Made by a program: the position numbers and the translations under genes
In this document: piece after piece, positions 154 through 11,483 of the stretch
Numbering within the stretch: the first letter of the stretch is position 1
Layout of the letters: the number at the start of each line of letters is the position of its first letter
DNA from: Mediterraneibacter agrestimuris
Lineage (GTDB): Bacteria; Bacillota; Clostridia; Lachnospirales; Lachnospiraceae
Assembly: GCF_943193195.1 (NCBI RefSeq)
Contig: NZ_CALPDG010000043.1
Span: 1-24,000 of the forward strand
Direction: 5' to 3'
Length of the DNA: 24,000 nucleotides
The notes under the pieces: generated by a model
Told to the model about the DNA's origin: nothing
What the model saw: the letters and a program-made list of their open reading frames with translations, nothing else
Databases searched by the model: none

Positions 154-958
154 TTGCGGAAGAACCCCAGTAGTTCTGTCTGCACAGGTAATAAGATATC
201 TTTCACGTCTCATTTTTTTATTTCATTCCAGAATCGAAAGCCCAAATTTTGTACTTTTATTCTGTCCTACATATCAAACACATCCTTTTCCCTCTACCTG
301 TAATATAAATCGCACGTTTTACAATCAGTCCCTCATTACGTATATAAAAATGGATTGTTGTATCTATAAATATAACTACATAGATTTTTTACAAATAGAG
401 TTCCTGCCATTCTTTTACAATGGGAAGGAATTTTATTTTTATACGTGTTCCTGCTGATGATACTGTCTATAATATCAATTCGTAAAGTTCACACATATGG
501 TTTTCGATATCGCATGTTGTCATGCTTTTGGGATGTATGGAGATAATTTTTTTCTATGCATCCGTGTTCTGTGTGACTGTTCTTTGATATTTCTTGATAA
601 TTGTGATTCAAACTTATCCTTACAATCATGGGAAATGTGATCATAACGGATATGCATTATTTTGGGAGCTGTCAGACTCTTTATTACGATAATCATGCAT
701 GGAGTATTCTGATTCTTCATTTACTTCATAATATAGAGGCTTTTTAAGATGATAGACATGATATCTTACATAATGGAATTGACATTTATAGTTTTTATGC
801 ATAGGCAATCCGTATCTAATAGTTTGACAGAGATATGGAACTTGTCTGATTAAACAAAATCTAATTAGGGTCAAATAATAACGGAAAGCGGACAAAAGAA
901 AATAGAGGATGTAATTTGGTATATGATACATTTATCAAATAGGAAGGAGGACGATAAG

Positions 959-1063
959 ATGGCAAAAAAGAAAAAAGCTCAGTCAAGTAGTAAGAAAAAA
1001 AGTGGTTGTGTCAATATCTACATTGTAGAAGCCGGATACAACGGAAAAAAGTGGACAATTTAA
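959..1063 (+). CDS. RiPP precursor peptide copy 1 (34 aa): MAKKKKAQSSSKKKSGCVNIYIVEAGYNGKKWTI
   Basis: A strong SD (AGGAAGGAGG, 941-950) precedes the ATG at 959, and the stop is TAA at 1061-1063. It is a paralog of five downstream copies and sits upstream of rSAM/SPASM, protease and transporter genes. Confidence 0.8.
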   Translation: MAKKKKAQSSSKKKSGCVNIYIVEAGYNGKKWTI

Positions 1064-1075
1064 GGAGGAAAAAAG

Positions 1076-1183
1076 ATGTCAGAACAGAGAAAAGATGTAA
1101 AAAAGAGTGGTAAGAAAAAAGGTGGTTGTATCAATATTTATATTGTAGAAGCCGGATACAATGGGAAGAAATGGACAATTTAA
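1076..1183 (+). CDS. RiPP precursor peptide copy 2 (35 aa): MSEQRKDVKKSGKKKGGCINIYIVEAGYNGKKWTI
   Basis: SD AAGGAGG precedes the ATG at 1076, and the stop is TAA at 1181-1183. The C-terminal 19 residues differ from copy 1 by one residue (I/V), plus several synonymous changes. Confidence 0.85.
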   Translation: MSEQRKDVKKSGKKKGGCINIYIVEAGYNGKKWTI

Positions 1184-1196
1184 GGAGGAAAAAGAA

Positions 1197-1304
1197 ATGT
1201 CAGAACAGAGACCAGATGTAAGAAAGAATGGTAAGAAAAAGGGCGGCTGCATCAATATCTTAATTGTGCAGGCAGGCTATGATGGGAAAAAATGGACAAT
1301 TTAA
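1197..1304 (+). CDS. RiPP precursor peptide copy 3 (35 aa): MSEQRPDVRKNGKKKGGCINILIVQAGYDGKKWTI
   Basis: SD AAGGAGG precedes the ATG at 1197, and the stop is TAA at 1302-1304. The 20-aa C-terminal segment is identical to copies 4 and 5 despite synonymous nucleotide differences. Confidence 0.85.
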   Translation: MSEQRPDVRKNGKKKGGCINILIVQAGYDGKKWTI

Positions 1305-1316
1305 GGAGGAAAAAAG

Positions 1317-1421
1317 ATGTCAGAACAAAGAGATGTAAGAAAGAATGGTAAGAAAAAGGGTGGCTGTATCAATATTTTAATTGTGCAAGCAGGTTATGAT
1401 GGAAAAAAATGGACAATTTAA
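1317..1421 (+). CDS. RiPP precursor peptide copy 4 (34 aa): MSEQRDVRKNGKKKGGCINILIVQAGYDGKKWTI
   Basis: SD AAGGAGG precedes the ATG at 1317, and the stop is TAA at 1419-1421. It has one codon fewer in the N-terminal region than copies 3 and 5. Confidence 0.85.
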   Translation: MSEQRDVRKNGKKKGGCINILIVQAGYDGKKWTI

Positions 1422-1434
1422 GGAGGAAAAAGAA

Positions 1435-1542
1435 ATGTCAGAACAGAGAAAAGATGTAAAAAAGAATGGTAAGAAAAAGGGTGGCTGCATCAATATCCTA
1501 ATCGTGCAGGCAGGCTATGATGGGAAAAAATGGACAATTTAG
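1435..1542 (+). CDS. RiPP precursor peptide copy 5 (35 aa): MSEQRKDVKKNGKKKGGCINILIVQAGYDGKKWTI
   Basis: SD AAGGAGG precedes the ATG at 1435, and the stop is TAG at 1540-1542. Confidence 0.85.
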   Translation: MSEQRKDVKKNGKKKGGCINILIVQAGYDGKKWTI

Positions 1543-1555
1543 TGGAGATAAAACC

Positions 1556-1648
1556 ATGAAAGAAATATTGAATAAAAAGAGAGAGATGTTAAAAAAACAT
1601 TCAGGATGTATTAATATTTCTATAGTAAATGCAGGGTTTAAGAAATGA
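1556..1648 (+). CDS. Divergent RiPP precursor copy 6 (30 aa): MKEILNKKREMLKKHSGCINISIVNAGFKK
   Basis: The ATG is at 1556 with a weaker SD (GTGGAGA), and the stop is TGA at 1646-1648. It keeps the G-C-I-N-I-x-I-V-x-A-G-aromatic block but lacks the D/N-G-K-K-W-T-I tail. Confidence 0.65.
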   Translation: MKEILNKKREMLKKHSGCINISIVNAGFKK

Positions 1649-1683
1649 TGAATCAAAGAAAAGTAAGAGGTTGCAAAAAATGA
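1645..1683 (+). other. Possible truncated seventh precursor relic (12 aa): MMNQRKVRGCKK
   Basis: Its ATG overlaps the stop of copy 6 (AAATGATG). It has a basic N-terminus and G-C, then stops two codons after the Cys. No separate SD is present. This call is speculative. Confidence 0.2.
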
Positions 1684-1743
1684 GGTTTCAAAATGTTCTC
1701 TGCCATCCGGATGCGGTGGCAGAGAACATGGAAAGGGATTGAT

Positions 1744-2202
1744 ATGAATCAAAGTAAAAAAAAGACAATTATGTTTGCGGTATCAGCTTGCTTATTAACA
1801 GCAATTTATGTTGTATATAATACAATAGGAGTAGATCTTGGACAAAAAACTATTATGCATTTTATGACAACAACAATAGCGGGACCTGCGGTAATACTTA
1901 TTGTTTATGGAATTTTGGTCGGAAAGGGGAAAAAACTTGTTCAAGTGTTTCCGCAACTTATCGGAGTTTCCTTCGTAGTTTTTATAATTTCATGTACTAG
2001 TATGTTTTATATGTATAATACAGAGTACATTTTCCAAATGTTAAACAATACTGCAACAAATGGAAATATTGTTTTAAATATTAATGAATCTATTACCATA
2101 GGAACAGTGGTGCAGCAGGCATTAATTTTCTTAGTTTGTTCGTGTGTAGGAAGTGGGATCGGGAACAAAGCTATAGCTTTATTGGATAAAATTAAAAATT
2201 AA
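1744..2202 (+). CDS. Small integral membrane protein (about 4 TM segments), candidate immunity or accessory protein
   Basis: The ORF-track ORF is 1693-2202. I prefer the ATG at 1744 (MNQSKKKTIMFAVSACLL...) because GAAAGGGA lies just upstream. Hydrophobic stretches include FAVSACLLTAIYVVY, AGPAVILIVYGILV, LIGVSFVVFIISC and ALIFLVCSCVGSGIG. I recognise no family. Confidence 0.6.
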   Translation: MNQSKKKTIMFAVSACLLTAIYVVYNTIGVDLGQKTIMHFMTTTIAGPAVILIVYGILVGKGKKLVQVFPQLIGVSFVVFIISCTSMFYMYNTEYIFQMLNNTATNGNIVLNINESITIGTVVQQALIFLVCSCVGSGIGNKAIALLDKIKN

Positions 2203-2212
2203 GGGGGCTACC

Positions 2213-3082
2213 ATGCTAGAAATTAGAGGTGTATGTAAGGAATTTGGTGATAAAACAATTTTGAAAGATATTAATCTTACAGTAGAGAATGGGACTATTG
2301 TGGGCTTACTTGGGAAAAATGGGGCGGGAAAATCAACCTTAATTAAGTGTATCAATCAGTTATATAGATTTCAGGGAGAAATAAAAGTAAATGGAATTAA
2401 TTATCGACAGAATTCAGAGAAATATCTAAGAAATGTCGGAGTTTTATTAGAACCAAGCTACTATGAGTATATGAGTGCAATAGAAAACCTGAAATCTTAT
2501 GCTTCACTAAGTGGAGTTTCTTATAAAAATATCGAAAACGAAATGAAGGCTTTACTGGATATTATGGGGTTAGGAGATTCAATAAACAAAAATGTAAGTG
2601 AATTTTCTTTTGGCATGAAACAAAAATTAGGTGTGGCTATGGCTTTGGCAAAAAAGCCAGATGTGTTGGTTTTAGATGAGCCTACAATAGGTGTAGATCC
2701 GAAAGGATTGGTGGCAATGTTTGATATTTTGCGAGATTTGGCTAAGAAGGAGAATACTGCGATCATCTTTTCTAGTAACAACTTGAAAGAAGTCCAGGAT
2801 ATGAGTGATCGAATTTCTTTTTTGAAAAACGGAGAAATAATTCAGACGGTAGATACAGAAAAATTATTAGAAAAAGAGAATTCATATGTAATTACAGTTC
2901 AAAAAGCAATCAAAGAAAAAGAAAGGCTTGAAAGAAAATGTAATTGTGTCGTGAGAGAAAAACAGATTAGTACGGAAAATTATAAGGATATGAATATTGT
3001 ACTAAACTATTTGATCAATACGGATAATCCTATCTTAAATGTTGAACGGGAAAATCACTTTTTGAAAAAGTTTTACGAATAA
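2213..3082 (+). CDS. ABC transporter ATP-binding protein
   Basis: Walker A is GKNGAGKST, the ABC signature-like motif is FSFGMKQKLG, and Walker B is VLVLDEPT. SD AAGGGGG precedes the ATG. Confidence 0.9.
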   Translation: MLEIRGVCKEFGDKTILKDINLTVENGTIVGLLGKNGAGKSTLIKCINQLYRFQGEIKVNGINYRQNSEKYLRNVGVLLEPSYYEYMSAIENLKSYASLSGVSYKNIENEMKALLDIMGLGDSINKNVSEFSFGMKQKLGVAMALAKKPDVLVLDEPTIGVDPKGLVAMFDILRDLAKKENTAIIFSSNNLKEVQDMSDRISFLKNGEIIQTVDTEKLLEKENSYVITVQKAIKEKERLERKCNCVVREKQISTENYKDMNIVLNYLINTDNPILNVERENHFLKKFYE

Positions 3083-3103
3083 AGAGGGAGGGAATTGGAG
3101 TTT

Positions 3104-3862
3104 ATGATTGGTTTGGTAAAGTTAGAATTAAAGAAAATATTTTCTAAAAAGGATATCATGATTATTAGTTCAATTTTGATTTTATCCCCGTTAGTGTTCG
3201 GGATTTGTATGGTAAATCGGATTGCAGGTCTGAATTTTAACGGTCAAATTACGATAGATGCCTATGGCATTATGATTTGGAGTTTTCTAAAGTATTTGTT
3301 TGTGTTGTATTTGATGCCAATATATTTAGTATGTTGTTTTGTTGGTAAGGAGATTGAGAGCAGAAGTATAAACATAATGTTATCAAATTACGATAGAAAA
3401 AAAGTTTTCGCGGCGAAGATGATGACATATTTGATAACAATTATAATCTTTTTTGTGCTTTTTCATATAGTAAGTATGTTGACATTTTCAGGTTTGATAC
3501 ACAATACAGAATTTGCTCTCGCAGGTTCGGGAAATACTTTAACAAGAAATTTTTTTCTGTATTTGTTTCAGTGGTTAGAACTTTTATTTGTAGCTATTAT
3601 TTCATATCTTTTATGTTGTGCGATAAAGGGAAATGCCGTATTAGTATTGGGAATAGGAGTTATTATTCTTCAGAAAATAGTAGTAAATATTGAAGGTGTA
3701 AGGCGTTTTTTACCATTCTATATTTCAGATTTTAATTACTATAGTATGATACCAGATGGCGTGCTAATGAATACTAATATAATATCATGCATTATTTATA
3801 CAATTATAATTATGGCAACTTTCTGCATCGCATTAAAAATGTGGAGCAGAAAAGACTTTTAA
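3104..3862 (+). CDS. ABC-2 type transporter permease (partner of the 2213-3082 ATPase)
   Basis: This is a polytopic membrane protein (about 6 TM) directly after the ATPase. The ORF track starts at TTG 3095, but the ATG at 3104 sits about 11 nt after GGGAGGG and is preferred. The family assignment comes from context and topology only. Confidence 0.7.
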   Translation: MIGLVKLELKKIFSKKDIMIISSILILSPLVFGICMVNRIAGLNFNGQITIDAYGIMIWSFLKYLFVLYLMPIYLVCCFVGKEIESRSINIMLSNYDRKKVFAAKMMTYLITIIIFFVLFHIVSMLTFSGLIHNTEFALAGSGNTLTRNFFLYLFQWLELLFVAIISYLLCCAIKGNAVLVLGIGVIILQKIVVNIEGVRRFLPFYISDFNYYSMIPDGVLMNTNIISCIIYTIIIMATFCIALKMWSRKDF

Positions 3863-3878
3863 AAAGGAGAATAACAAT

Positions 3879-5090
3879 ATGTATCAAATGTGTAAGGCGG
3901 TAGCATTCATTGAACTGGATTCAGAAAGATATTTGGCGGATTTTGAAAGTGGTGCACTTATTAAAATGAGTGATAAAAGAGAAAAAATTTTAGGAGAGAA
4001 TATTCAGGGAAAATATTATGAAAAAGGAGACTTTTCCGAAGATCCTCTGTTATTTGCTGAGTTAGAAGATGGTGGATATTTTCAAGAAGTTATCCAACCA
4101 TTGTCTACGGCTTATGTTCATGTAACAAACATTTGCAATTTAAATTGTATTGGCTGCTATTCTTATGATAGAACCAGAAATTGTACAGATAAATTGACAT
4201 TAGAAAATTACTCCTATATTTTATCTGAATTGGCGAAAAATGGTGTGGAAACAGTGACCATTTCTGGTGGGGAACCATTAATTCGAAAGGATATTATTGA
4301 GATATGTAGATATGCAAAAGATAAAGCAAAAATTTCTGTGTTAAATCTGATAACGAATGGAACTTTGTATAATGAAGAGCAGATAAAACAGCTTAAAAAG
4401 TATGTAGATGCTTTAGCAGTATCTATTGACGGATATAGTACGGAAAACTCTCAATTTTTGCGAGATGCCGGGAGTTTTCAGAAAGCAGTTGAATTTGTAC
4501 GGAGGGTCAAGGAATTAGGATTGCCAGTTTCGATATTGCCTACATTACATAAGAAGAATATCAAGGCTATTGGAGAATACATGAAATTAAGTCGTGAACT
4601 TCAAGTGCCAATTAGCTTTAGTTTGCTTACATGCTCAGGGGAATTGAAAGATTTTATACCTACAGATCAAGATTTGAGTTTTCTTGCTGAGTATTTGTGT
4701 GAATATATGAAAAATGGTGTTGTTCCTTTACAGGATTATTCGGAACTTGAGGCTCGAAAGAGCTGTGGTGCAGGAAGTAGCATTATTAGTGTAACGTCGG
4801 AAGGAGACATATATCCATGTCATATGATGCATGATACAAATACAGTTATGGGGAATATTTTAGAAAGACCGTTAAAAGAAATTCTATATAATGCAAAACC
4901 GCTTCCAAACGTAGAAGATATTGAAAAGTGTCAAAACTGTGAGATGAAATATCTATGTGGAGGGGGATGTAAGGCAAGAGCATTGTTGATTAATGGCAGT
5001 TGGGAAAAACCTGATCCATATTGCAGTCTAAACATGGACTTTTACAAAAGATTCTTAAAGGAGAAAAGGAATAGTGAAAAAAGAAAATAG
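3879..5090 (+). CDS. Radical SAM enzyme with C-terminal SPASM domain (RiPP maturase candidate)
   Basis: The CNLNCIGC motif gives CxxxCxxC (C86, C90, C93; nt 4134-4157), with SGGEPL downstream. The full SPASM pattern is present: C-x12-G-x4-C (CGAGSSIISVTSEGDIYPC), then C-x2-C-x5-C-x3-C (CQNCEMKYLCGGGC) and a later DPYC. An extension of about 85 aa precedes the rSAM core and has the size of an RRE/PqqD-like peptide-binding domain. Confidence 0.9.
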   Translation: MYQMCKAVAFIELDSERYLADFESGALIKMSDKREKILGENIQGKYYEKGDFSEDPLLFAELEDGGYFQEVIQPLSTAYVHVTNICNLNCIGCYSYDRTRNCTDKLTLENYSYILSELAKNGVETVTISGGEPLIRKDIIEICRYAKDKAKISVLNLITNGTLYNEEQIKQLKKYVDALAVSIDGYSTENSQFLRDAGSFQKAVEFVRRVKELGLPVSILPTLHKKNIKAIGEYMKLSRELQVPISFSLLTCSGELKDFIPTDQDLSFLAEYLCEYMKNGVVPLQDYSELEARKSCGAGSSIISVTSEGDIYPCHMMHDTNTVMGNILERPLKEILYNAKPLPNVEDIEKCQNCEMKYLCGGGCKARALLINGSWEKPDPYCSLNMDFYKRFLKEKRNSEKRK

Positions 5091-5730
5091 AGTTGAACAA
5101 TATTTAATGGCGGGAATTCATATTGCTATATATTGCATTTTGCCTATGATTGGATTTATGACTTGGGTTCTTTGTGTACCAATTCTATTCTATGGTGGGA
5201 TGATGACCAGTGTTGATGATGCTCAAGGATTGGGACAAACATTACTTGTTTTTTCAGCTCCAATGCTACTATTTTTTGCAGTGATACCGGTTCTTTTTCA
5301 ACTGAGAAGGGTTTCAGTAAGGGAATTAGGGATAAAGTTCAGCTATGATAAAAAAAATATAGTAGTTTTTGGAATTAACTGTTTTATTGTAATAATACTC
5401 CTTGGAAGACTGGTACTGAATTTTAATTCTCCATTGGATGCACTTCCTATAGTATTTCAATTATGTGTGATAGGTATTTCTGAAGAAATCCTTTGTAGAG
5501 GTATTATATATCATGAAATTGAGAGCGGATTTGGAAATAAGTGGTTTGCAGTAATTCTTAGTTCTATGATTTTTGCGTTCTTATTTCATTCAGGGGATAC
5601 AGATTTAGCCAATTTGGCAATTAGATTTCCTCTTGGATTAGCACTTGCACTGGTGCGTTGCTATACTGGAAATGTATATAGTAGCATTATGATGCATATT
5701 TGGTATAATTCCTGGATGTTTATACTGTAA
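5074..5730 (+). CDS. CPBP-family (CAAX/Abi) intramembrane glutamic protease
   Basis: Motifs are EEILCRG (EExxxR), FAFLFH (FxxxH) and HIWYN (HxxxN) in a polytopic membrane protein. The GTG start overlaps the rSAM gene by 17 nt, which suggests translational coupling. Confidence 0.8.
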   Translation: MKKENRVEQYLMAGIHIAIYCILPMIGFMTWVLCVPILFYGGMMTSVDDAQGLGQTLLVFSAPMLLFFAVIPVLFQLRRVSVRELGIKFSYDKKNIVVFGINCFIVIILLGRLVLNFNSPLDALPIVFQLCVIGISEEILCRGIIYHEIESGFGNKWFAVILSSMIFAFLFHSGDTDLANLAIRFPLGLALALVRCYTGNVYSSIMMHIWYNSWMFIL

Positions 5731-5744
5731 GGAGGAAAGAGCCT

Positions 5745-7451
5745 GTGAGGATACTATATCAATATCTATTTAAATTCAAAACATTAAGTGGAGCAAGAAT
5801 TTTAACAAATGTTTGTAAGGCGGCTTGTACAGTATATTTGTCTATTATTTTAGGCAATGTATTAGATGGCTTGGCAAATTCAGATGTATCGATGTTGACT
5901 GCTGCTGTCCTCAGATGCGTAGTATTGCTATTCTTCTTTGTTGTAGTATCAGGGCTGGATATATGGGTAACAACTTTACAAACAAAGAAAATATTAAATT
6001 ATATAAAACATGATATTTTTTCTAAAATAATTTCTGGAAGTATCGAGAAGTATAGAAGCATGCATAGTGGAAAATATCTATCTATTTTAAATAATGATAT
6101 TTCTACCATAAATGAAGAATTTATCACTAATTTTTTTGATTTAATTTTTCAGATTTTGTCATTTGCAATTTCTTTAGTAATAATGCTACGAATTAATATA
6201 GTAGTGACAGGCATTATTTTGGGAATATCAATGTTAAGCATGTATGTTGTATCAAAGATTTCAGATAAGCTGATGAGACAGCAAGTTAAATTATCTGAAA
6301 GCCTTGAAAATGTGACAAAATTAGCTGCAGATATTTTCTCAGGGATACTGGTTATAAAAAATTATAATTTAACTAGTAAAATAGAGGAAATGTATTATAG
6401 TAATGATCAAGCAGTAGAGGATAATAGAGAAAAGTATTCTATTATGATAGGTGTGATAAATATATTGATGGTTTGTTTTAGTATGTTAATTTATTTGACA
6501 ATCGTTGTATTTTGTGCCACTTCAGTGATGAATGCCACATTATCTGCTGGAACAGCTTTGATTATTCTGCAGTTAAGTAGTAATTTGACCGAACCGATAA
6601 ATGAAATTATTTCCATTGGAAGTGCAATGAATTCTGTAAAAGGAATTGGAGAGAAAATACAGAAAATATATATGGAAAATGGTGATGAAACCGGAACCAT
6701 ACATAAAGATGTATTTAATAAATCAATTAATATTCATGGTTTGGAATTTGGGTATAATCCGGAGGATAATCTAGTTTTAAATGGTGTCGATTTAGAATTT
6801 TGTAAAGGGAAAAAATATGCGATTGTTGGGGAAAGTGGTTCAGGAAAAACTACGCTGATTAAATTGCTTTTAAAGTATTATAACAAGTATAGTGGAAAAA
6901 TTTTGATTGATGAAACAGATATTCGTACTATTGATATTAACGATTATTGTAGTCTTATTTCTTCAATGGAGCAAGATACTTTTATTTTTGATGAAACTTT
7001 GTGGGACAATATTTGTCTGTATTCAGATTATACAGAACAAGAGGTAAAAAAGGCGGTATTACAGGCTGGTTTAACATCTGTAGTAGAACGGCTTCCAGAC
7101 GGTCTTCAAACAATGTTAGGTGAAGGAGGTTCAAATCTTTCAGGAGGAGAATGCCAACGTGTTGCTTTTGCAAGACTTTTATTAAAAAAGACGCCAATAC
7201 TGCTTTTGGATGAGGCTACAGCAAATTTAGATAATGAAATGGCAGTAAAGATTGAGAGACTAGTTTTAGAAAATAAAAACCTAACATTGGTTTCTATTAC
7301 ACATAAATTAATTAAACAAGTTCTGCAGCAGTACGATGAGATTATTGTTTTGAAAAAAGGGATTGTGATCGAAAAAGGAAGTTTCAATCAGTTAATGCAA
7401 AAACAAGGATACTTTTTTAATTTGTACAATGTGCAGACAATGGAGGCATAG
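5745..7451 (+). CDS. ABC exporter, fused 6-TM permease plus ATPase; no N-terminal C39 peptidase domain
   Basis: The N-terminal half is hydrophobic. The C-terminal half carries GESGSGKTT (Walker A), LSGGECQRVAFAR (signature) and LLLDEATANLD (Walker B). The protein is 568 aa and starts directly with TM segments. Confidence 0.9.
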   Translation: MRILYQYLFKFKTLSGARILTNVCKAACTVYLSIILGNVLDGLANSDVSMLTAAVLRCVVLLFFFVVVSGLDIWVTTLQTKKILNYIKHDIFSKIISGSIEKYRSMHSGKYLSILNNDISTINEEFITNFFDLIFQILSFAISLVIMLRINIVVTGIILGISMLSMYVVSKISDKLMRQQVKLSESLENVTKLAADIFSGILVIKNYNLTSKIEEMYYSNDQAVEDNREKYSIMIGVINILMVCFSMLIYLTIVVFCATSVMNATLSAGTALIILQLSSNLTEPINEIISIGSAMNSVKGIGEKIQKIYMENGDETGTIHKDVFNKSINIHGLEFGYNPEDNLVLNGVDLEFCKGKKYAIVGESGSGKTTLIKLLLKYYNKYSGKILIDETDIRTIDINDYCSLISSMEQDTFIFDETLWDNICLYSDYTEQEVKKAVLQAGLTSVVERLPDGLQTMLGEGGSNLSGGECQRVAFARLLLKKTPILLLDEATANLDNEMAVKIERLVLENKNLTLVSITHKLIKQVLQQYDEIIVLKKGIVIEKGSFNQLMQKQGYFFNLYNVQTMEA

Positions 7452-7465
7452 ACGGAGGAGCGCAT

Positions 7466-8083
7466 ATGTATCACATAATAACAATTAAATTTTTAGAAAG
7501 TTTTTTTGGAAAAACTAATATGAGAAATAACAGATTATGGGAAAAATATGTGGAATATTTTTTACCATTAATTCTGAATACGATGGTGGCTTCTGGAATT
7601 GGTCATACATTTGAAATAGAAATAGAAATGATTATCTTTAGTATATTTTATACGGTTCTTAGGACGAGTAATGGCGGAAATTATTATAAAATAAATGTGA
7701 AAAATACTCTATTTTTCTGGAGTTCTGCGGTAGTAGTACTTAAAAGCATACCACATATAATAGCAGCTGAATATGGAAAGATTTTGCTTTTAACATTTAT
7801 TTTGGGAAGTTTAGCAATTGTATTTATTTTTTTGCCAGTATCAATTCGGCAAAGAGAATTTCCAAAGAATGTACGAAAGACAATTTTAAAAATGAGTTAT
7901 GCGGTAATATTGTTAGAAAGCCTTCCCTTACTGATTGGAACATTTTTTTGTATAAATAGATTTATTGTAGCAGCTGTGTCAGGTGTTTTGCTACAGAGTA
8001 TTTCGCTGATTTGGGTTCGGGAAAGAGAATGGAAAATGACTACTTTATATAATAAAACAGAAAGGTGTGGGATATGTGAATAA
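7466..8083 (+). CDS. Polytopic membrane protein with AgrB-like layout but lacking the catalytic His/Cys pair
   Basis: LRTSNGGNYYKINVKNT aligns by eye with the AgrB LR..GG.HA......C block, with Y replacing H and no Cys. FLPVSIRQREFPKNVRKTILKMSY resembles the basic cytoplasmic loop of AgrB ([21 protein letters not shown]). The family call is tentative. Confidence 0.35.
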   Translation: MYHIITIKFLESFFGKTNMRNNRLWEKYVEYFLPLILNTMVASGIGHTFEIEIEMIIFSIFYTVLRTSNGGNYYKINVKNTLFFWSSAVVVLKSIPHIIAAEYGKILLLTFILGSLAIVFIFLPVSIRQREFPKNVRKTILKMSYAVILLESLPLLIGTFFCINRFIVAAVSGVLLQSISLIWVREREWKMTTLYNKTERCGICE

Positions 8084-8392
8084 GATGCCGATTGTCATGT
8101 TAGATGATAAATTTATTACAAATTCAAGGAAACTAAAAAAATATTTTGGTTTCAGATGTAGTTTTTGAATTAAGATAGAAGTAACACATAGGTAGAAAAG
8201 GGAGAGATGAAATATTATAAGTTTTAAGATTTAGAAAGCGGTGAATCTATTAGGTTTGCTGCTTTTTATTTTAGAAATAGATTAGAAATACATAATATGA
8301 AAAAAGTATAAAAAAGTATAAAAGTATAAATAATGAAACCCAAATCCAACTCTCTTCGTATTGATAAAAAGTAGGTGGATTGGATTTGGACA

Positions 8393-8940
8393 ATGGATGA
8401 AAAGATTTTAATAAAGAAACTACAGAGAAAAGATTATTGATATGTACAGTACCTATATTACATACATTGTCTGGGGGTTATTGCATAAAAAAGGAACACG
8501 GGAAGACGTTGAGGGAGGTGGTAGCAGATACTTTTATTTCGCTATGGATGACAGCAGAACGTGTTGATTATAAGCATTATAGTAGTATTCGGGGATACAT
8601 AGGTACTATTGCGAGAAATAAAGCCAAAGATTGGTTGAGAACTCATCGAGGTGTAGATTTAGGCTTAGATGAGGATATCGTAAGTGCTGATCAGAATTTA
8701 GAATTATTGGTTTTACAAAAGGAACAACAAAAAATAGTCCAAAACACCTTGAAGGAGTTGAAGCAAGAGGATAGAAGCATTTTTACTAAGTATTATTATG
8801 AATGTATGAAAATCGAAGAAATAGCGGAAGATCTACAGATGAATCCACAAACAATTAAAACCAGACTACGACGGGGACGGGAAACTTTGAAACAAATTCT
8901 TCTGAAAGAGGGGTATAGGAGCAGTGAAATTGAGAATTAG
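8393..8940 (+). pseudogene. ECF-type sigma-70 family sigma factor, apparently disrupted by two frame changes near the 5' end
   Basis: MDEKILIKKLQRKDY-stop occupies one frame (8393-8440). REKIIDMYSTYITYIVWGLLHKKGTREDVE occupies a second frame (about 8424-8513). EVVADTFISLW...IARNKAKDWLR...region 4 (EIAEDLQMNPQTIKTRLRRGRETLK) occupies the third frame (8515-8940). Joined together, these read like a normal clostridial ECF sigma factor. Confidence 0.6.
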
Positions 8941-9646
8941 TGAAATGATGGATCATTCCAGCGAAATTTTGGAACATGATATGGCTTGTGACTTTATGGT
9001 GGATGAAGATCGTATAAAGCAAATTGTATTTTATAAAATTGGCTGTTCTAGAGTGAAAAATGGCAGAAGGAGTAAAAAAAGGTATGCAGCTATATTTGTT
9101 GCCACATTAGGGATTGGAGGAATGACCGCATGGGCACACAGTATTCTTAAATCTGCCGGAGAAATTAACGGAAATAAAAATGAAGTATTGGAAAGCCAAG
9201 AAGGAATCTCCATATCAGAAAATATGGAAGATCAGGAAGAAATTTTTGAACCGGATACGGCAACAGAGTGGATAACTGACGAAAATTTATGCAGAGATGG
9301 AGTACCGATTGCAAAATATATTATAGAATTACCAATACAAAAAGATGGAACTGTGCCGGAATGTTATTATTATGGCAAGACGAAAGAAACCTGTACACCG
9401 AGTACAAATTATAGAATCGTCTCTCATAAAAAACGTGAACCGGGAATCCCCAAAAAGGTTCCCGGTCTTGTTCTATTTTTTCGTATGTTCTTTTATAATA
9501 GGAGGAATCTGCCCCATCATATTGTCGATATCTTCAAACATAGCGCTTTTCGTGGTTCCCAGCTTGCTTGCTTTGCTTATATGTTTCACTACTTCCTGAT
9601 ATCCGTTTCTCAGCTGTTCAAAGAATCCGCAAAGCATTTGGAGTGA
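8924..9646 (+). CDS. Anti-sigma-factor-like single-pass membrane protein; the 3' end is unreliable
   Basis: The start overlaps the sigma gene stop. It has a short cytoplasmic N-terminus, one TM segment (YAAIFVATLGIGGMTAWAHSIL) and an extracytoplasmic tail. The frame has no stop before the hairpin at 9439-9466 and runs antisense into the convergent MCP gene, so the last 60 or so codons are very unlikely to be real. Confidence 0.4.
   Translation: MKLRISEMMDHSSEILEHDMACDFMVDEDRIKQIVFYKIGCSRVKNGRRSKKRYAAIFVATLGIGGMTAWAHSILKSAGEINGNKNEVLESQEGISISENMEDQEEIFEPDTATEWITDENLCRDGVPIAKYIIELPIQKDGTVPECYYYGKTKETCTPSTNYRIVSHKKREPGIPKKVPGLVLFFRMFFYNRRNLPHHIVDIFKHSAFRGSQLACFAYMFHYFLISVSQLFKESAKHLE
9439..9480. 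terminator. Bidirectional intrinsic terminator between convergent genes
   Basis: ACCGGGAA (9439-9446) pairs with TTCCCGGT (9459-9466) around a 12-nt loop. A T-run follows on the plus strand (ctattttttcg), and an A-run on the left (cataaaaaacg) gives a T-run on the minus strand. Confidence 0.7.
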
Positions 9647-10417
9647 CATCTTTGACTCATCGAGCACTTTGGAGATCTCAGACTGCACATCCTTGGCGCC
9701 TTCTGCCGATTGTGTGATTTTATCAAACATATCGTAGGTTTCGTTTACCTTAAACAGACTTTCTCCCAAAGCTTTCTGCGACTCTGCAATGCTGTTGTTA
9801 AGCCGCTCTGTTCCTGCCTCCACATCATGGATGCCGGAGTCCACTTCGCCGGTCAAATTCTTGATTTGATCCGCAAGTTTTTTTACTTCCACTGCGACTA
9901 CTGCAAATCCCTTTCCCTGCTGTCCGGCTCTTGCAGCTTCTATAGAAGCATTCAGTGCAAGGAGGTTCGTCTGTTCGGCAATGGCTACAATGCTGCTGGT
10001 ACAACGCTTAATTTTCTCCACCGACTGCTGCAGAGACTCAAATGTATTTTCCATTTCACCGAAGTGGGCTTCTACTTGAATGGAGCTGGTTCTCAGTTCC
10101 TCAACCCCCCTTTGGGCGTGGTCAACCGATTGGTCAATATTCTGTTTGACAGCGGCAAATTCACCGGACACCTGTTCAATATTTGAAAAATTCAGGTCGA
10201 ACTGCTGTAATTTATCCTGAAAGTTTTCTGCTTCGTTAAGTATTTTTCCGAAGGAACTTCCTATATTGCCCAATTCCTGCAGGGATTCCACCTCTTTTTG
10301 CACCAGCTCGGTACGGTAGTCCTTCAAACTTTCCATTACATGGAGTACCGGATACAGATCGTTTGTGTCTTCAGGCATCTTTTTTGTATCTTTCTTATCT
10401 CTATTCCAAAACATCAT
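9473..10417 (-). CDS. Soluble methyl-accepting chemotaxis protein (signaling domain only, no TM segments)
   Basis: AEQTNLLALNASIEAARAGQQGKGFAVVAVEVKKLADQ is the highly conserved MCP hairpin-tip motif. The ORF track starts at TTG 10435. I prefer the ATG at 10417, preceded by AAGGGGGA, which also removes the overlap with the upstream gene. Confidence 0.85.
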   Translation of the reverse strand: MMFWNRDKKDTKKMPEDTNDLYPVLHVMESLKDYRTELVQKEVESLQELGNIGSSFGKILNEAENFQDKLQQFDLNFSNIEQVSGEFAAVKQNIDQSVDHAQRGVEELRTSSIQVEAHFGEMENTFESLQQSVEKIKRCTSSIVAIAEQTNLLALNASIEAARAGQQGKGFAVVAVEVKKLADQIKNLTGEVDSGIHDVEAGTERLNNSIAESQKALGESLFKVNETYDMFDKITQSAEGAKDVQSEISKVLDESKMSLQMLCGFFEQLRNGYQEVVKHISKASKLGTTKSAMFEDIDNMMGQIPPIIKEHTKK

Positions 10418-10427
10418 GAATCCCCCT

Positions 10428-11483
10428 TTACTCAAACACTACGCAGGTCATGGACTGGTTCACGAAGCGGTTATTATAGTGTTCTCCATATCCCACAAAG
10501 CCTGCATGTGATCCCAACAAACTCATATCGTTCAAATACTCCTGCATATAGTGGTTGTCGGTAAACAGTAAATATCTGAACAGGCAGTTTACGGAAAATA
10601 CTGCGGAAATCCGGGAGAAATCCTGTTGTATCTGACGAATCGTATTCCTTACAGTCTCTTTATAATCGCCTAATTCCAAAAGAACCAATACATCCGAATC
10701 ATTTACCTGCCGAAAGCATGTCAAAGCATCTCCTTTTACTTCCTTGATGGAAACAATGCAGGTGTCGTCTCCGTTAATTTTACCGAAAGGATTCTTGAAG
10801 GTCTGTGTTGTGATTTCTTTCTCTGTTATATGTAGAATGTCCTGATAAACCCGCTTTGCCGGATATCCGTTTAATGCCCCCATAACATAATTTGCCTTAT
10901 CTGTCCGAGATGCGATAAACCGATATTGGTCTAATGGATGGTAGATATTCTCTTTATATGCTTTTACCTTTCCGTTTTGGTTCTTCACTATTGCATAGGC
11001 AACAGCGTCCTCATAGACTCTGCCGTTTGCTGACACTTTTCCTGCATCGCCGGTTCCTCCCACTAGGGAAATATTTTTTCGCTTTAACACGGAATAAATC
11101 GTGGTAAGTACACAAGCATCGTTTCCTGAGCATAGGTCGATACATATCGTATCGTTCTGGGAGCCGTTCACGCGTTTTACGTCCTCCTCAAGGCGCTGGA
11201 TATATTTTACAGGCATAACAGATACTTCCTCTAATACGTTTGCAGCTGCGGCAACGCCGTCATAAAATGCAACAACGCCGACACCTTTCTCAACTACTTT
11301 AGTGTCGTAACTCATACCGATACATCCAATACTTGGCACTTCGGGAAAAAGCTTCTCCAATTCTACTACGTGTTTCTCAAACTGATTACTATTAGAAAAC
11401 AGCATAATAAATTGAGGTCTGCTTAATCCACGAACCGCGTCTGTTAAATTTCCCTGCTGGCTCATTCCGAAAAACTGTTTCAT
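10428..11483 (-). CDS. FIST-domain sensor protein (FIST_N plus FIST_C like)
   Basis: The N-terminal pattern PQFIMLFSNSNQFEKHVVELEKLFPEVPSIGCIGMSYDT...GVGVVAF matches the FIST layout (previous-state/Fxx block, then a G-C-x-x-x-G block). It lies immediately upstream of an MCP, which is the usual FIST context. The call is made by eye only. Confidence 0.55.
   Translation of the reverse strand: MKQFFGMSQQGNLTDAVRGLSRPQFIMLFSNSNQFEKHVVELEKLFPEVPSIGCIGMSYDTKVVEKGVGVVAFYDGVAAAANVLEEVSVMPVKYIQRLEEDVKRVNGSQNDTICIDLCSGNDACVLTTIYSVLKRKNISLVGGTGDAGKVSANGRVYEDAVAYAIVKNQNGKVKAYKENIYHPLDQYRFIASRTDKANYVMGALNGYPAKRVYQDILHITEKEITTQTFKNPFGKINGDDTCIVSIKEVKGDALTCFRQVNDSDVLVLLELGDYKETVRNTIRQIQQDFSRISAVFSVNCLFRYLLFTDNHYMQEYLNDMSLLGSHAGFVGYGEHYNNRFVNQSMTCVVFE

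Follow-up and report, generated by a model that had tools for sequence, protein, structure and literature searches.

A putative radical SAM/SPASM peptide operon in Mediterraneibacter agrestimuris and its place in a larger family of enzyme–peptide pairs

Results

Gene content of the operon

We analyzed a stretch of 24,000 nucleotides from Mediterraneibacter agrestimuris (contig NZ_CALPDG010000043.1, positions 1 to 24,000, hereafter the window), which carries a putative operon for a peptide that is ribosomally synthesized and modified after translation (RiPP). Six small genes, each preceded by a Shine–Dalgarno (SD) sequence, are followed on the same strand by genes for a protein with four transmembrane segments (the 4-TM protein), an ATP-binding cassette (ABC) ATPase with its permease, a radical S-adenosylmethionine (rSAM) enzyme with a SPASM domain, a CPBP intramembrane protease, an ABC exporter, and an AgrB-like membrane protein, and the downstream genes are spaced by short gaps or overlaps. 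A preliminary description of the window had proposed six SD-preceded genes of 30–35 codons as well as this order of the downstream set, and the small genes (959–1648), the coordinates, and the domain hits bear out both. The span that it gave, up to 8083, holds for these genes, but the unit ends later, at 8168 with an open reading frame (ORF) of 30 amino acids (aa), and decayed sigma and anti-sigma genes follow to about 9403. Related loci are cited below by handle; L081, L085, L086, and L088 are metagenome contigs recovered through homologs of the rSAM or the AgrB-like protein, and L001 is an Oscillospiraceae metagenome-assembled genome.

959..1063, + strand: precursor gene 1, type A (MAKKKKAQSSSKKKSGCVNIYIVEAGYNGKKWTI; SD sequence AGGAAGGAGG upstream; orthologs in L085, L086, and L088; purifying selection)
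1076..1183, + strand: precursor gene 2, type A (MSEQRKDVKKSGKKKGGCINIYIVEAGYNGKKWTI; SD sequence, tandem array, selection)
1197..1304, + strand: precursor gene 3, type A (MSEQRPDVRKNGKKKGGCINILIVQAGYDGKKWTI; 3–6 synonymous and 0 nonsynonymous differences from copies 4 and 5 over the last 21 codons)
1317..1421, + strand: precursor gene 4, type A (tandem array; purifying selection)
1435..1542, + strand: precursor gene 5, type A (tandem array; purifying selection)
1556..1648, + strand: precursor gene 6, type B (MKEILNKKREMLKKHSGCINISIVNAGFKK; divergent, without the KKWTI tail)
1693..1729, + strand: stem-loop between precursor gene 6 and the 4-TM gene (minimum free energy −31.8 kcal/mol, z = −5.1 against shuffles; no U-tract)
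1744..2202, + strand: 4-TM protein, 152 aa (four predicted transmembrane segments; no family; presumed immunity or accessory role)
2213..3082, + strand: ABC ATPase of an ABC-2-type pair (PF00005)
3095..3862, + strand: 255-aa membrane permease that pairs with the ATPase (no Pfam or NCBIfam match)
3879..5090, + strand: rSAM/SPASM maturase with an RRE-like N-terminal domain at residues ~8–64 (PF04055, PF13353, PF13186)
5074..5730, + strand: CPBP (Rce1-like) intramembrane glutamic protease (PF02517, 58 bits)
5745..7451, + strand: half-size ABC exporter with a 6-TM domain (PF00664, residues 19–284) and a nucleotide-binding domain (PF00005, residues 345–493)
7466..8083, + strand: AgrB-family membrane protein, here called pseudo-AgrB (PF04647, 27.7 bits; gathering score 23)
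8076..8168, + strand: 30-aa ORF overlapping the pseudo-AgrB stop codon ((V)NKMPIVMLDDKFITNSRKLKKYFGFRCSF, ending ...KKYFGFRCSF)

Two conserved types of precursor peptide

An AGGAGG or GGAG motif lies a few bases 5' of each of the six precursor genes. The type-A copies 1–5 form a 121-bp tandem array with 86% matches (Tandem Repeats Finder), and pairwise comparison of copies 3, 4, and 5 over their last 21 codons gave three to seven synonymous differences and no nonsynonymous ones. Against orthologs in other contigs, the same codons of the type-A copies have a proportion of synonymous differences (pS) of about 0.5–1.0 and a proportion of nonsynonymous differences (pN) that stays within 0–0.24 (ranges of 0–0.13 and of 0.02–0.24). 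Paralogs 3–5 differ only synonymously, and the peptides recur beside orthologous maturases; to judge from their sequences, the six small genes are real. They encode two conserved types of peptide, type A in five copies and type B in one.

The consensus of type A, M[AS]EQ...KKK[SG]GC[IV]N[IV]x[IV]V[QE]AGY[ND]GKKWTI, is found in one to five copies per locus, while type B, MK..LNKKRE.LKK[HY]SGCINIS[IV][VI]NAG[YF]KK, is encoded by one gene that is always the last precursor gene; it is the single last precursor gene also in L001, L085, L086, and L088. The precursors of the window carry a single Cys, as first described, and a leader of only about 11–17 residues, whereas the KKWTI tail that had been ascribed to them is present in type A and absent from gene 6. 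An internal MLKKHSGC in peptide 6 mirrors the MLKF..KKAGC N-terminus of streptococcal peptides. A peptide identical to that of precursor gene 5 is present in public assemblies, in a 20-member cluster in which none is named, and no NCBIfam model matched 18 precursor peptides and no Pfam model three of them, the broad scan being run at E <= 10. A lipobox-like [AST]-G-C is present in the precursors; a lipoprotein signal was considered and rejected by inspection, as there is no hydrophobic h-region.

The stem-loop at 1693–1729 may be a partial terminator or an mRNA-stabilizing element. Hairpins of unlike sequence, read by eye, occupy the same site in L085, L086, L088, L002, and L081, and a stem-loop after the structural genes is an arrangement often met in RiPP loci. 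Upstream of the precursors, direct repeats of the LytTR type were looked for and not found, and consensus scans for promoters and terminators were uninformative (38 promoter-like sites observed against 49.5 expected).

The rSAM/SPASM enzyme

The rSAM triad C86/C90/C93 (CxxxCxxC) and the SPASM cysteines C296, C314, C351, C354, C360, C364, and C382 are all invariant in 62 homologs, so that the complete seven-Cys SPASM motif reported earlier is confirmed along with the triad. Every NCBIfam match of the protein lies far below the family cutoff. The best is WgkB (147 bits against a cutoff of 650), followed by AhbD (134/500), StsB (123/625), NirJ (122/515), PqqE (119/381), the mycofactocin maturase MftC (107/265), PapB (103/340), and the SCIFF maturase rSAM_six_Cys (88/425); the alignments to StsB, a sactisynthase, and PapB, a ranthipeptide maturase, are near full length and below threshold. 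With AhbD, NirJ, PqqE, and MftC below cutoff and the anaerobic sulfatase-maturating enzyme (anSME) a weak match, the enzyme falls outside the characterized non-RiPP families, and with no Pfam or NCBIfam model matching the precursors, the view that the locus cannot be assigned to a described class also stands.

An AlphaFold2 model built on the alignment of the 62 homologs (pLDDT 91.7, pTM 0.90) places three strands and three helices (b-b-b-a-a-a) in residues 8–64, ahead of the rSAM barrel, which is the topology of a RiPP recognition element (RRE). No Pfam PqqD match to this N-terminal domain was found at E <= 0.01. A Foldseek search of the PDB ranked CteB first (E 1e-21, 21% identity, TM-score 0.64), then SuiB, PqqE, SkfB, and anSME, and the full-length structural alignments to CteB and SuiB take in their RRE; the match to EpeE was poorer, with a TM-score of 0.43–0.46 versus 0.64 for CteB. 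By sequence, the PDB search gave the order CteB, PqqE, SkfB, with the SkfB match limited to the rSAM core (E 1.3e-15) and that to anSME weak (E 1e-6). As modeled, the enzyme resembles a peptide maturase with an RRE-like, putatively leader-binding domain.

Among closer homologs (core identity >= 59%), the N-terminal domain is 31–69% identical, and polybasic leaders occur in the five whose contigs were looked up; to the remaining homologs, its identity is 3–26%, with 29–52% in the catalytic core. This fits a co-variation of leader and binding domain, which falls short of proof because such domains evolve fast and the leader type was matched for few homologs.

Orthologous operons in gut Clostridia

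Related gut Clostridia have these genes in exactly the order of the window. Identity to the rSAM enzyme of the window is 97% in L001, 82% in L085, 76% in L088, and 66% in L086. The order of precursors, 4-TM protein, ABC ATPase, permease, rSAM enzyme, CPBP protease, and exporter is the same in L002, L081, and L085–L088, with the AgrB-like gene last in the operon of the relatives where this could be checked. Precursor peptides recur 5' of the orthologous rSAM genes in L001, L081, L085, L086, and L088, and the conservation of the small ORFs beside orthologous maturases, for which the preliminary description had proposed a search in other genomes, is thus observed; precursor genes could not be identified in the contig of L087. 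The 4-TM and AgrB-like proteins are restricted to a sub-branch made up of the window, L002, L081, and L085–L088. L001 has the 4-TM gene, and its contig stops before the position of the AgrB-like gene.

The window and L085 are colinear from 1109 to 9368 of the window, with 77% of the nucleotides identical, and a weaker homology sets in near 870, about 90 nt 5' of the first precursor gene. In L085, an AgrB gene, a candidate AgrD-like 40-aa gene, and LytTR and histidine kinase (HK) genes lie 5' of the operon, and a sigma-70-family gene and its partner gene lie 3' of it. Complete agr-type sets (canonical AgrB, AgrD-like, LytTR, and HK) stand beside the operon in L002 (12281–16426), L086 (13495–16907), and L085 (1981–5616), with AgrD-like peptides of typical form encoded separately in all three; L082–L084 have a DUF4135-only protein beside a LytTR regulator instead. 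As to regulation, the operons of relatives adjoin an agr-type quorum-sensing set or a sigma/anti-sigma pair, which are absent or decayed in the window.

A larger family of rSAM enzymes with short Cys-containing peptides

In a scan of one genome per GTDB species, 455 genome stretches encode a relative of the rSAM enzyme; locus-level counts in this text cover the best 80 of these 455 (32–97% rSAM identity). The members in Bacillota include Lachnospiraceae, Oscillospiraceae, Thermoanaerobacter, Bacillus, Neobacillus, Staphylococcus, Streptococcus, Enterococcus, and Anaerococcus, and a large block falls in Coriobacteriia (Gordonibacter, Eggerthella, Adlercreutzia, Collinsella, Olsenella, and Slackia). 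Nearly all loci have one to four SD-preceded genes of 22–37 codons beside the rSAM gene, and their peptides, 22–37 aa long, usually follow the form 'MLF-x(6-10)-C-x-x-[IV]-G...'. Examples are given below.

Family peptides: MLFFSKKVRKAGCASVGAVVCGSVGYSGKKWSA; MLFATKKPATKPNCVSFGVFLCVSYGKNW (three copies); MLKFSTKKTKKAGCVSVGALVSVSIGHYIKEIKSTV; MLFYSEAEPRSICYPIGFNGGICLAIGV
L049, Gordonibacter pamelaeae: peptide MLFYSEADPRSVCYPIGIVGGICIAPGF, a minimal pair with the rSAM enzyme

A pattern scan for an SD-preceded gene of the MLF/MLK type on the rSAM strand, from −3 to +4.5 kb, found such a peptide gene in 64 of the 80 loci, mostly 8–150 nt 3' of the rSAM stop codon, as against four matches of the same pattern in 453 kb elsewhere in the loci. 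The loci that the scan missed mostly have a short contig, a copy seen by eye that is distant, on the opposite strand, or behind a weak SD sequence, or peptides of the polybasic type. The Cys is invariant in all 85 peptides aligned on it, and it is followed by V or I at +1, S, N, or P at +2, I or V at +3, and G at +4 (57 of the 85). In a MAFFT alignment, the window peptides line up with the MLF type and are gapped at the position of the second Cys; their Cys18 and Gly27 stand in invariant columns, and a GY-x-G-KKW-[ST]-[IA] tail is common to the window peptides and those of L004, L011, L012, and L034. This alignment argues that the window peptides are divergent members of the family that have lost the MLF and the second Cys.

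The peptides and enzymes of the other branches matched no curated family, and the family peptides held in public databases are labeled 'hypothetical' or 'uncharacterised'. The comparison indicates that the enzyme–peptide pair belongs to a much larger family, spread widely among bacteria of gut and soil, that is nameless in the databases searched. The locus is neither an orphan nor unique but a divergent sub-branch of this large family of rSAM enzymes with short Cys-containing peptides, which weakens the notion of a one-off oddity and raises its general relevance.

Gene content differs across the family. CPBP homologs occur in 31 of the 80 loci, all in Bacillota and all with an ABC ATPase; most of these loci also have the exporter and many the permease (phmmer with the window proteins). 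In the same phmmer searches, the Coriobacteriia loci gave neither a CPBP homolog nor an adjacent ABC set, and in the two of them looked at in detail a small membrane protein follows the rSAM–peptide pair.

L049, 9307–9837: DUF2975-like membrane protein after the rSAM–peptide pair
L074, 9115–9600: DUF2975-like membrane protein after the rSAM–peptide pair

Gene sets of this kind point to another, or a more basic, function of the family in these two loci. The 4-TM protein of the window was considered as a counterpart of the DUF2975-like protein, and no similarity was found.

The MLF start of most family peptides (e.g., L049, 9097–9183), which is absent from the window peptides, is the tripeptide of the chemoattractant fMLF, the N-formylated form, and many of the bacteria with MLF peptides are human-gut species. 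One streptococcal member of the family resides on a RefSeq megaplasmid of S. salivarius, 188 kb in size (L089, NZ_CP018188.1, 3808–8050). An ISSag10 transposase and the lincosamide-resistance gene lnu(C) interrupt the rSAM gene there, the enzyme is annotated merely as 'SPASM domain-containing protein', and the peptide gene (MLKFSTKKTKKAGCVSVGALVSVSIGHYIKEVKSTV) is missing from the PLSDB gene table, which is incomplete.

Transport, protease, and AgrB-like proteins

The 4-TM protein matched no Pfam or NCBIfam family and has orthologs at the same position in L001, L002, L081, and L085–L088. The best NCBIfam match of the ABC ATPase is the lantibiotic-protection ABC family TIGR03740 (177 bits, below the cutoff of 310), and in many related loci homologs of the permease come right after the ATPase; the pair is likely a self-protection (immunity) transporter. 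The protease has all three CPBP motifs (EExxxR, FxxxH, and HxxxN) and would act as the leader peptidase, a role with a precedent in MroQ, which takes part in the maturation of the autoinducing peptide (AIP) (PMC10885120). No C39 peptidase domain was found in the domain scan of the exporter, homologs of which are present in many Bacillota loci.

The label 'AgrB-like' given to the last membrane protein is right as to family membership (PF04647) and wrong if catalytic residues are implied. In the alignment, the window protein has Tyr in the catalytic His column and Asn in the catalytic Cys column, which we take to be the positions of the catalytic His77 and Cys84 of S. aureus AgrB (reportedly from Qiu et al., 2005, cited in PMC10885120). 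Throughout the subgroup, the His column holds Y, I, F, or L and the Cys column N, S, or G (window NGGNYYKINVKN, L002 AGGCYLKLDMKN), while more canonical AgrB relatives keep GG-x-H-x6-C, including the second AgrB of L002, which adjoins an AgrD-like gene and LytTR and HK genes. The protein probably does not act as an AgrB-type enzyme and looks like a recruited non-catalytic paralog. It has only 21 relatives among 1.84 billion representatives (exhaustive HMMER scan), and its matches among PDB sequences were only chance ones to MgtE. Its gene closes the operon in L002 and L085–L087 and, judged from where the query protein itself is placed, in L081, and a complete agr-type set often comes after it; at the corresponding position, L088 has a gene for 206 aa that is unannotated.

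The 30-aa ORF is kept at the same place in L085, L086, and L088, and differs from that of L085 by three synonymous and seven nonsynonymous changes (pS 0.19, pN 0.09). We considered it as an AgrD-like substrate and dropped the idea because its Cys stands third from the C-terminus and its partner, pseudo-AgrB, is without the catalytic dyad.

Flanking DNA and a second RiPP cluster

Colinearity with L085 stops at 9368, where the GC content goes from 0.32 to 0.41. On the 5' side of the operon, the window has a transposase fragment and unrelated DNA. The biosynthetic genes are all intact in the window, and a megablast search of plasmids with the island as query was negative. The features around the operon are as follows.

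1–150: C-terminal end of an ISL3-type transposase (identified by eye)
8393..8931, + strand: sigma-70-family (ECF-like) regulator gene, split over three frames (tblastn with the intact L085 ortholog)
8924..9403, + strand: putative anti-sigma gene, 5' two-thirds (tblastn covers residues 3–157 of 246)
9439–9466: bidirectional terminator-like hairpin
9473–11483, − strand: soluble protein with an MCP signaling domain (320 aa) and FIST-domain protein (351 aa), just past the island boundary
16188–17371: DDE_Tnp_1 transposase in two ORFs
18433–18606, 18621–18797, 18810–18998, and 19003–19323: lanA-like genes with a common F-E-E-L...Q-G-A-G-D leader, the last matching PF16934
19528–22569: LanM class II lanthipeptide synthetase (DUF4135 and LANC_like), followed by an 86-aa membrane ORF
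22878–23606: FMN-reductase-like flavoprotein, after the 86-aa membrane ORF

The sigma gene is probably a pseudogene, the other explanation being assembly indels. The lanthipeptide genes make up a second RiPP cluster, of class II, at 18433–23606, and both clusters sit in a region rich in insertion sequences (IS). A class II lanthipeptide cluster so near by suggests a bacteriocin island and a part in gut competition.

Discussion

Proposed function and competing explanations

We favor, with moderate confidence, the reading that the locus is a RiPP operon for a secreted, bacteriocin-like peptide with a Cys thioether, its leader removed by the CPBP protease and its producer protected by an ABC immunity transporter. 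The parts of this reading differ in strength. It is very likely that the precursor peptides are the substrates of the rSAM enzyme, and likely that the products in the window's branch are processed by the CPBP protease and exported, with the ABC-2 pair serving self-protection; there is about an even chance that the enzyme forms a thioether between the invariant Cys and a carbon in the hydrophobic core. The product is most likely a bacteriocin-like or signaling peptide. In the proposed scheme, the N-terminal leader, which is short and basic, would be bound by the RRE-like domain, and a residue within the hydrophobic core CINILIVQAGY would lose a hydrogen to the rSAM enzyme and be joined by it to the Cys in a sactionine-type thioether (−2 Da, one ring per peptide). 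The CPBP protease would cut off the leader near the G-C junction, the ABC exporter would secrete the product, and the ABC-2 pair, perhaps with the 4-TM protein, would protect the producer, while pseudo-AgrB would be a non-catalytic accessory protein.

Several points weigh against this reading. The thioether is proposed from the invariant Cys and a generic structural similarity, and the scores of the rSAM enzyme are just as poor for enzymes that make C-C crosslinks (WgkB, 147 bits) and for heme and PQQ enzymes. The Aux I site is open in CteB and fully ligated in SuiB, anSME, and PqqE (PMC6231123). We considered an open Aux I site as a pointer to thioether chemistry and dropped it; such a site cannot be inferred for our enzyme because the possible eighth Fe-S ligand, C252 in the linker, is Cys in only 43 of the 62 homologs. 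The leader is unusually short, and the cleavage site proposed for it is tentative. The Coriobacteriia loci L049 and L074 hold only the rSAM enzyme, the peptide, and the DUF2975-like membrane protein, and with neither protease nor exporter there, the ancestral function of the family may not be a secreted bacteriocin. Finally, this copy of the operon may be silent because the sigma gene needs two frameshifts to match its ortholog, the partner gene after it is truncated at ~9403, and the agr two-component genes found upstream in L085 are replaced in the window by IS-flanked DNA.

The chemistry is thus the part most exposed to an alternative, namely that the enzyme epimerizes the C-alpha of the Ile/Val core, as in epipeptides or proteusins, or forms a C-C or C-O crosslink through the Tyr/Lys/Trp tail, as in streptide, tryglysin, or triceptides, leaving the Cys for Fe-S ligation or for marking the cleavage site. 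WgkB, the top NCBIfam score, is a Trp-Lys crosslinking enzyme, SuiB comes second among the structural matches, Ile and Val abound in the core, and type-A peptides have Y and K-K-W; in the CteB crystal, moreover, a substrate Cys outside the crosslink ligates Aux I (PMC6231123). We nevertheless hold such chemistry to be unlikely, as Trp and Lys-Lys are missing in type B and in most of the family, in which only the Cys and one Gly are invariant, EpeE superposes less well than CteB, and all scores against named families are far under the cutoffs. Much less probable still is that the products are agr-type AIPs, in which the AgrB-like protein would make a Cys thiolactone, the CPBP protease would trim the N-terminal part as MroQ does, and the rSAM enzyme would tailor the peptide. 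An AgrB-family protein and a CPBP protease do co-occur here with single-Cys peptides, the protease weakly matches MroQ in NCBIfam (28.7 bits against a cutoff of 270), and full agr sets adjoin the operon in relatives. These sets have their own canonical AgrB, however, and an AgrD-like peptide, likewise separate, was identified in three of the relatives; the peptide–rSAM pair is found in more than 70 loci with no detected homolog of the AgrB-like protein; and the precursors, by inspection, have neither the amphipathic N-helix nor the acidic C-tail of AgrD and match no NCBIfam or Pfam model. Because the window protein, like its whole subgroup, has lost the catalytic His and Cys, the thiolactone route is unlikely, and we rejected it.

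A further explanation concerns this copy and is compatible with a RiPP cluster type, namely that it is a decaying, non-expressed remnant in an IS-rich region, without a current function. The ISL3 transposase fragment at 1–150, the onset of L085 homology ~90 nt before the first precursor gene, and the state of the regulatory genes, with the sigma gene in three frames, its neighbor truncated, and the agr two-component genes of the relatives absent, all speak for it. We think it possible yet doubtful, since all eight structural and biosynthetic proteins and the six precursor genes are full length compared with their orthologs, the precursor copies are under purifying selection, and the frameshifts could be assembly errors.

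In a broader and more tentative view, the MLF-Cys peptide and the rSAM/SPASM enzyme would form a new RiPP class with an unprecedented modification, a core of 11–23 residues, and a leader of ~12 residues, widespread in Coriobacteriia and Bacillota of the human gut. The window's branch would then have gained a catalytically inactive AgrB paralog along with a coupled 30-aa ORF and a joint output of A and B peptides, and a peptide with an N-terminal Cys that is cyclized or processed in an undescribed way is possible.

Relation to described systems

The locus appears, by analogy, to work most like a sactipeptide or SKF-type bacteriocin cluster. With the sactisynthases CteB (thermocellin) and StsB (streptosactin), the enzyme shares the three-domain architecture; CteB is its best structural match, and StsB, whose product has the 'type 2' small-ring topology, gives the near-full-length NCBIfam alignment. 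The donor Cys near the N-terminus of a short core is likewise as in sactipeptides, among which multiple tandem precursor genes are common. On the other hand, identity to CteB is ~21%, the precursors are unrelated, and the window peptides have a single Cys and a short leader; with StsB at 123 of 625 bits and SkfB matching in the core only, membership in the sactisynthase families (StsB, SCIFF-type, SkfB, and AlbA-like) was not found. The enzyme does not group with the ranthipeptide maturases either (PapB 103/340, rSAM_six_Cys 88/425; single Cys in the window precursors).

The sporulation killing factor (SKF) locus of B. subtilis combines, like the window, an rSAM enzyme with a CPBP/CAAX membrane protease and an ABC-2-type pair; skfABCEF encode the precursor, the rSAM enzyme SkfB, the CAAX-type protease SkfC, and the ABC ATPase and permease. 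The SkfA leader presumably ends in ...KAAG before a Cys-first core, similar to ...KAG-C or ...KSG-C in the window. However, the SPASM domain of the window enzyme is complete, the locus lacks a thioredoxin-like gene, the precursors are dissimilar, and the CPBP protein matched no SkfC-specific family in NCBIfam; the gene set is analogous only and not SKF-like by membership. SkfB itself belongs to the Twitch enzymes and has a single auxiliary cluster (PMC6231123).

The agr pathway (AgrB and MroQ) has in common with the locus genes for an AgrB-family protein and a CPBP protease together with those for short Cys-containing peptides, and differs in that the His and Cys of the window protein are replaced, the precursors are not of the AgrD type, and an rSAM enzyme is present. 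The streptococcal rSAM-dependent RiPPs (RaS-RiPPs) are similar in the small rSAM/SPASM operon, the short precursor, and the transporter, as well as in a quorum-sensing link, which the window's relatives share and which connects RaS-RiPPs with shp/rgg (PMC9389541). Streptococcal members of our family (e.g., MLKFSTKKTKKAGCVSVG...) lie beside LytTR/HK regulator genes, and not beside shp/rgg, in the one annotated example, the S. salivarius plasmid. Assignment to the streptide/tryglysin group is contradicted by the WgkB score (147/650) and by the peptides, in which no WGK or KxxxW motif is conserved and Trp is missing in type B and most family members.

Novelty and implications

RiPPs made by rSAM/SPASM enzymes are of a known kind, while the window branch and the family as a whole are nameless in the databases searched. 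In full-text searches of the literature, neither these peptides nor a cluster of rSAM, CPBP, and AgrB genes was found, with the limit that two large surveys might already list the family, namely the 2022 atlas of Clark and Seyedsayamdost and the supplementary data of Precord et al. from 2023. The latter work reports 'six new predicted sactipeptide groups' that could include the family.

If the family is truly uncharacterized, it would be a large source of novel radical-SAM peptide chemistry, the more so as its precursor genes are mostly unannotated. Its very short cores and leaders would ease reconstitution and engineering. Two puzzles attach to the branch of the window in particular, namely an AgrB paralog without the catalytic dyad that is still kept at the end of the operon in nearly all relatives examined, and a conserved pair of A and B peptides. 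The family is present in prominent gut lineages, such as Eggerthellaceae, Collinsella, and Lachnospiraceae/Oscillospiraceae, as well as in staphylococci, streptococci, enterococci, and bacilli.

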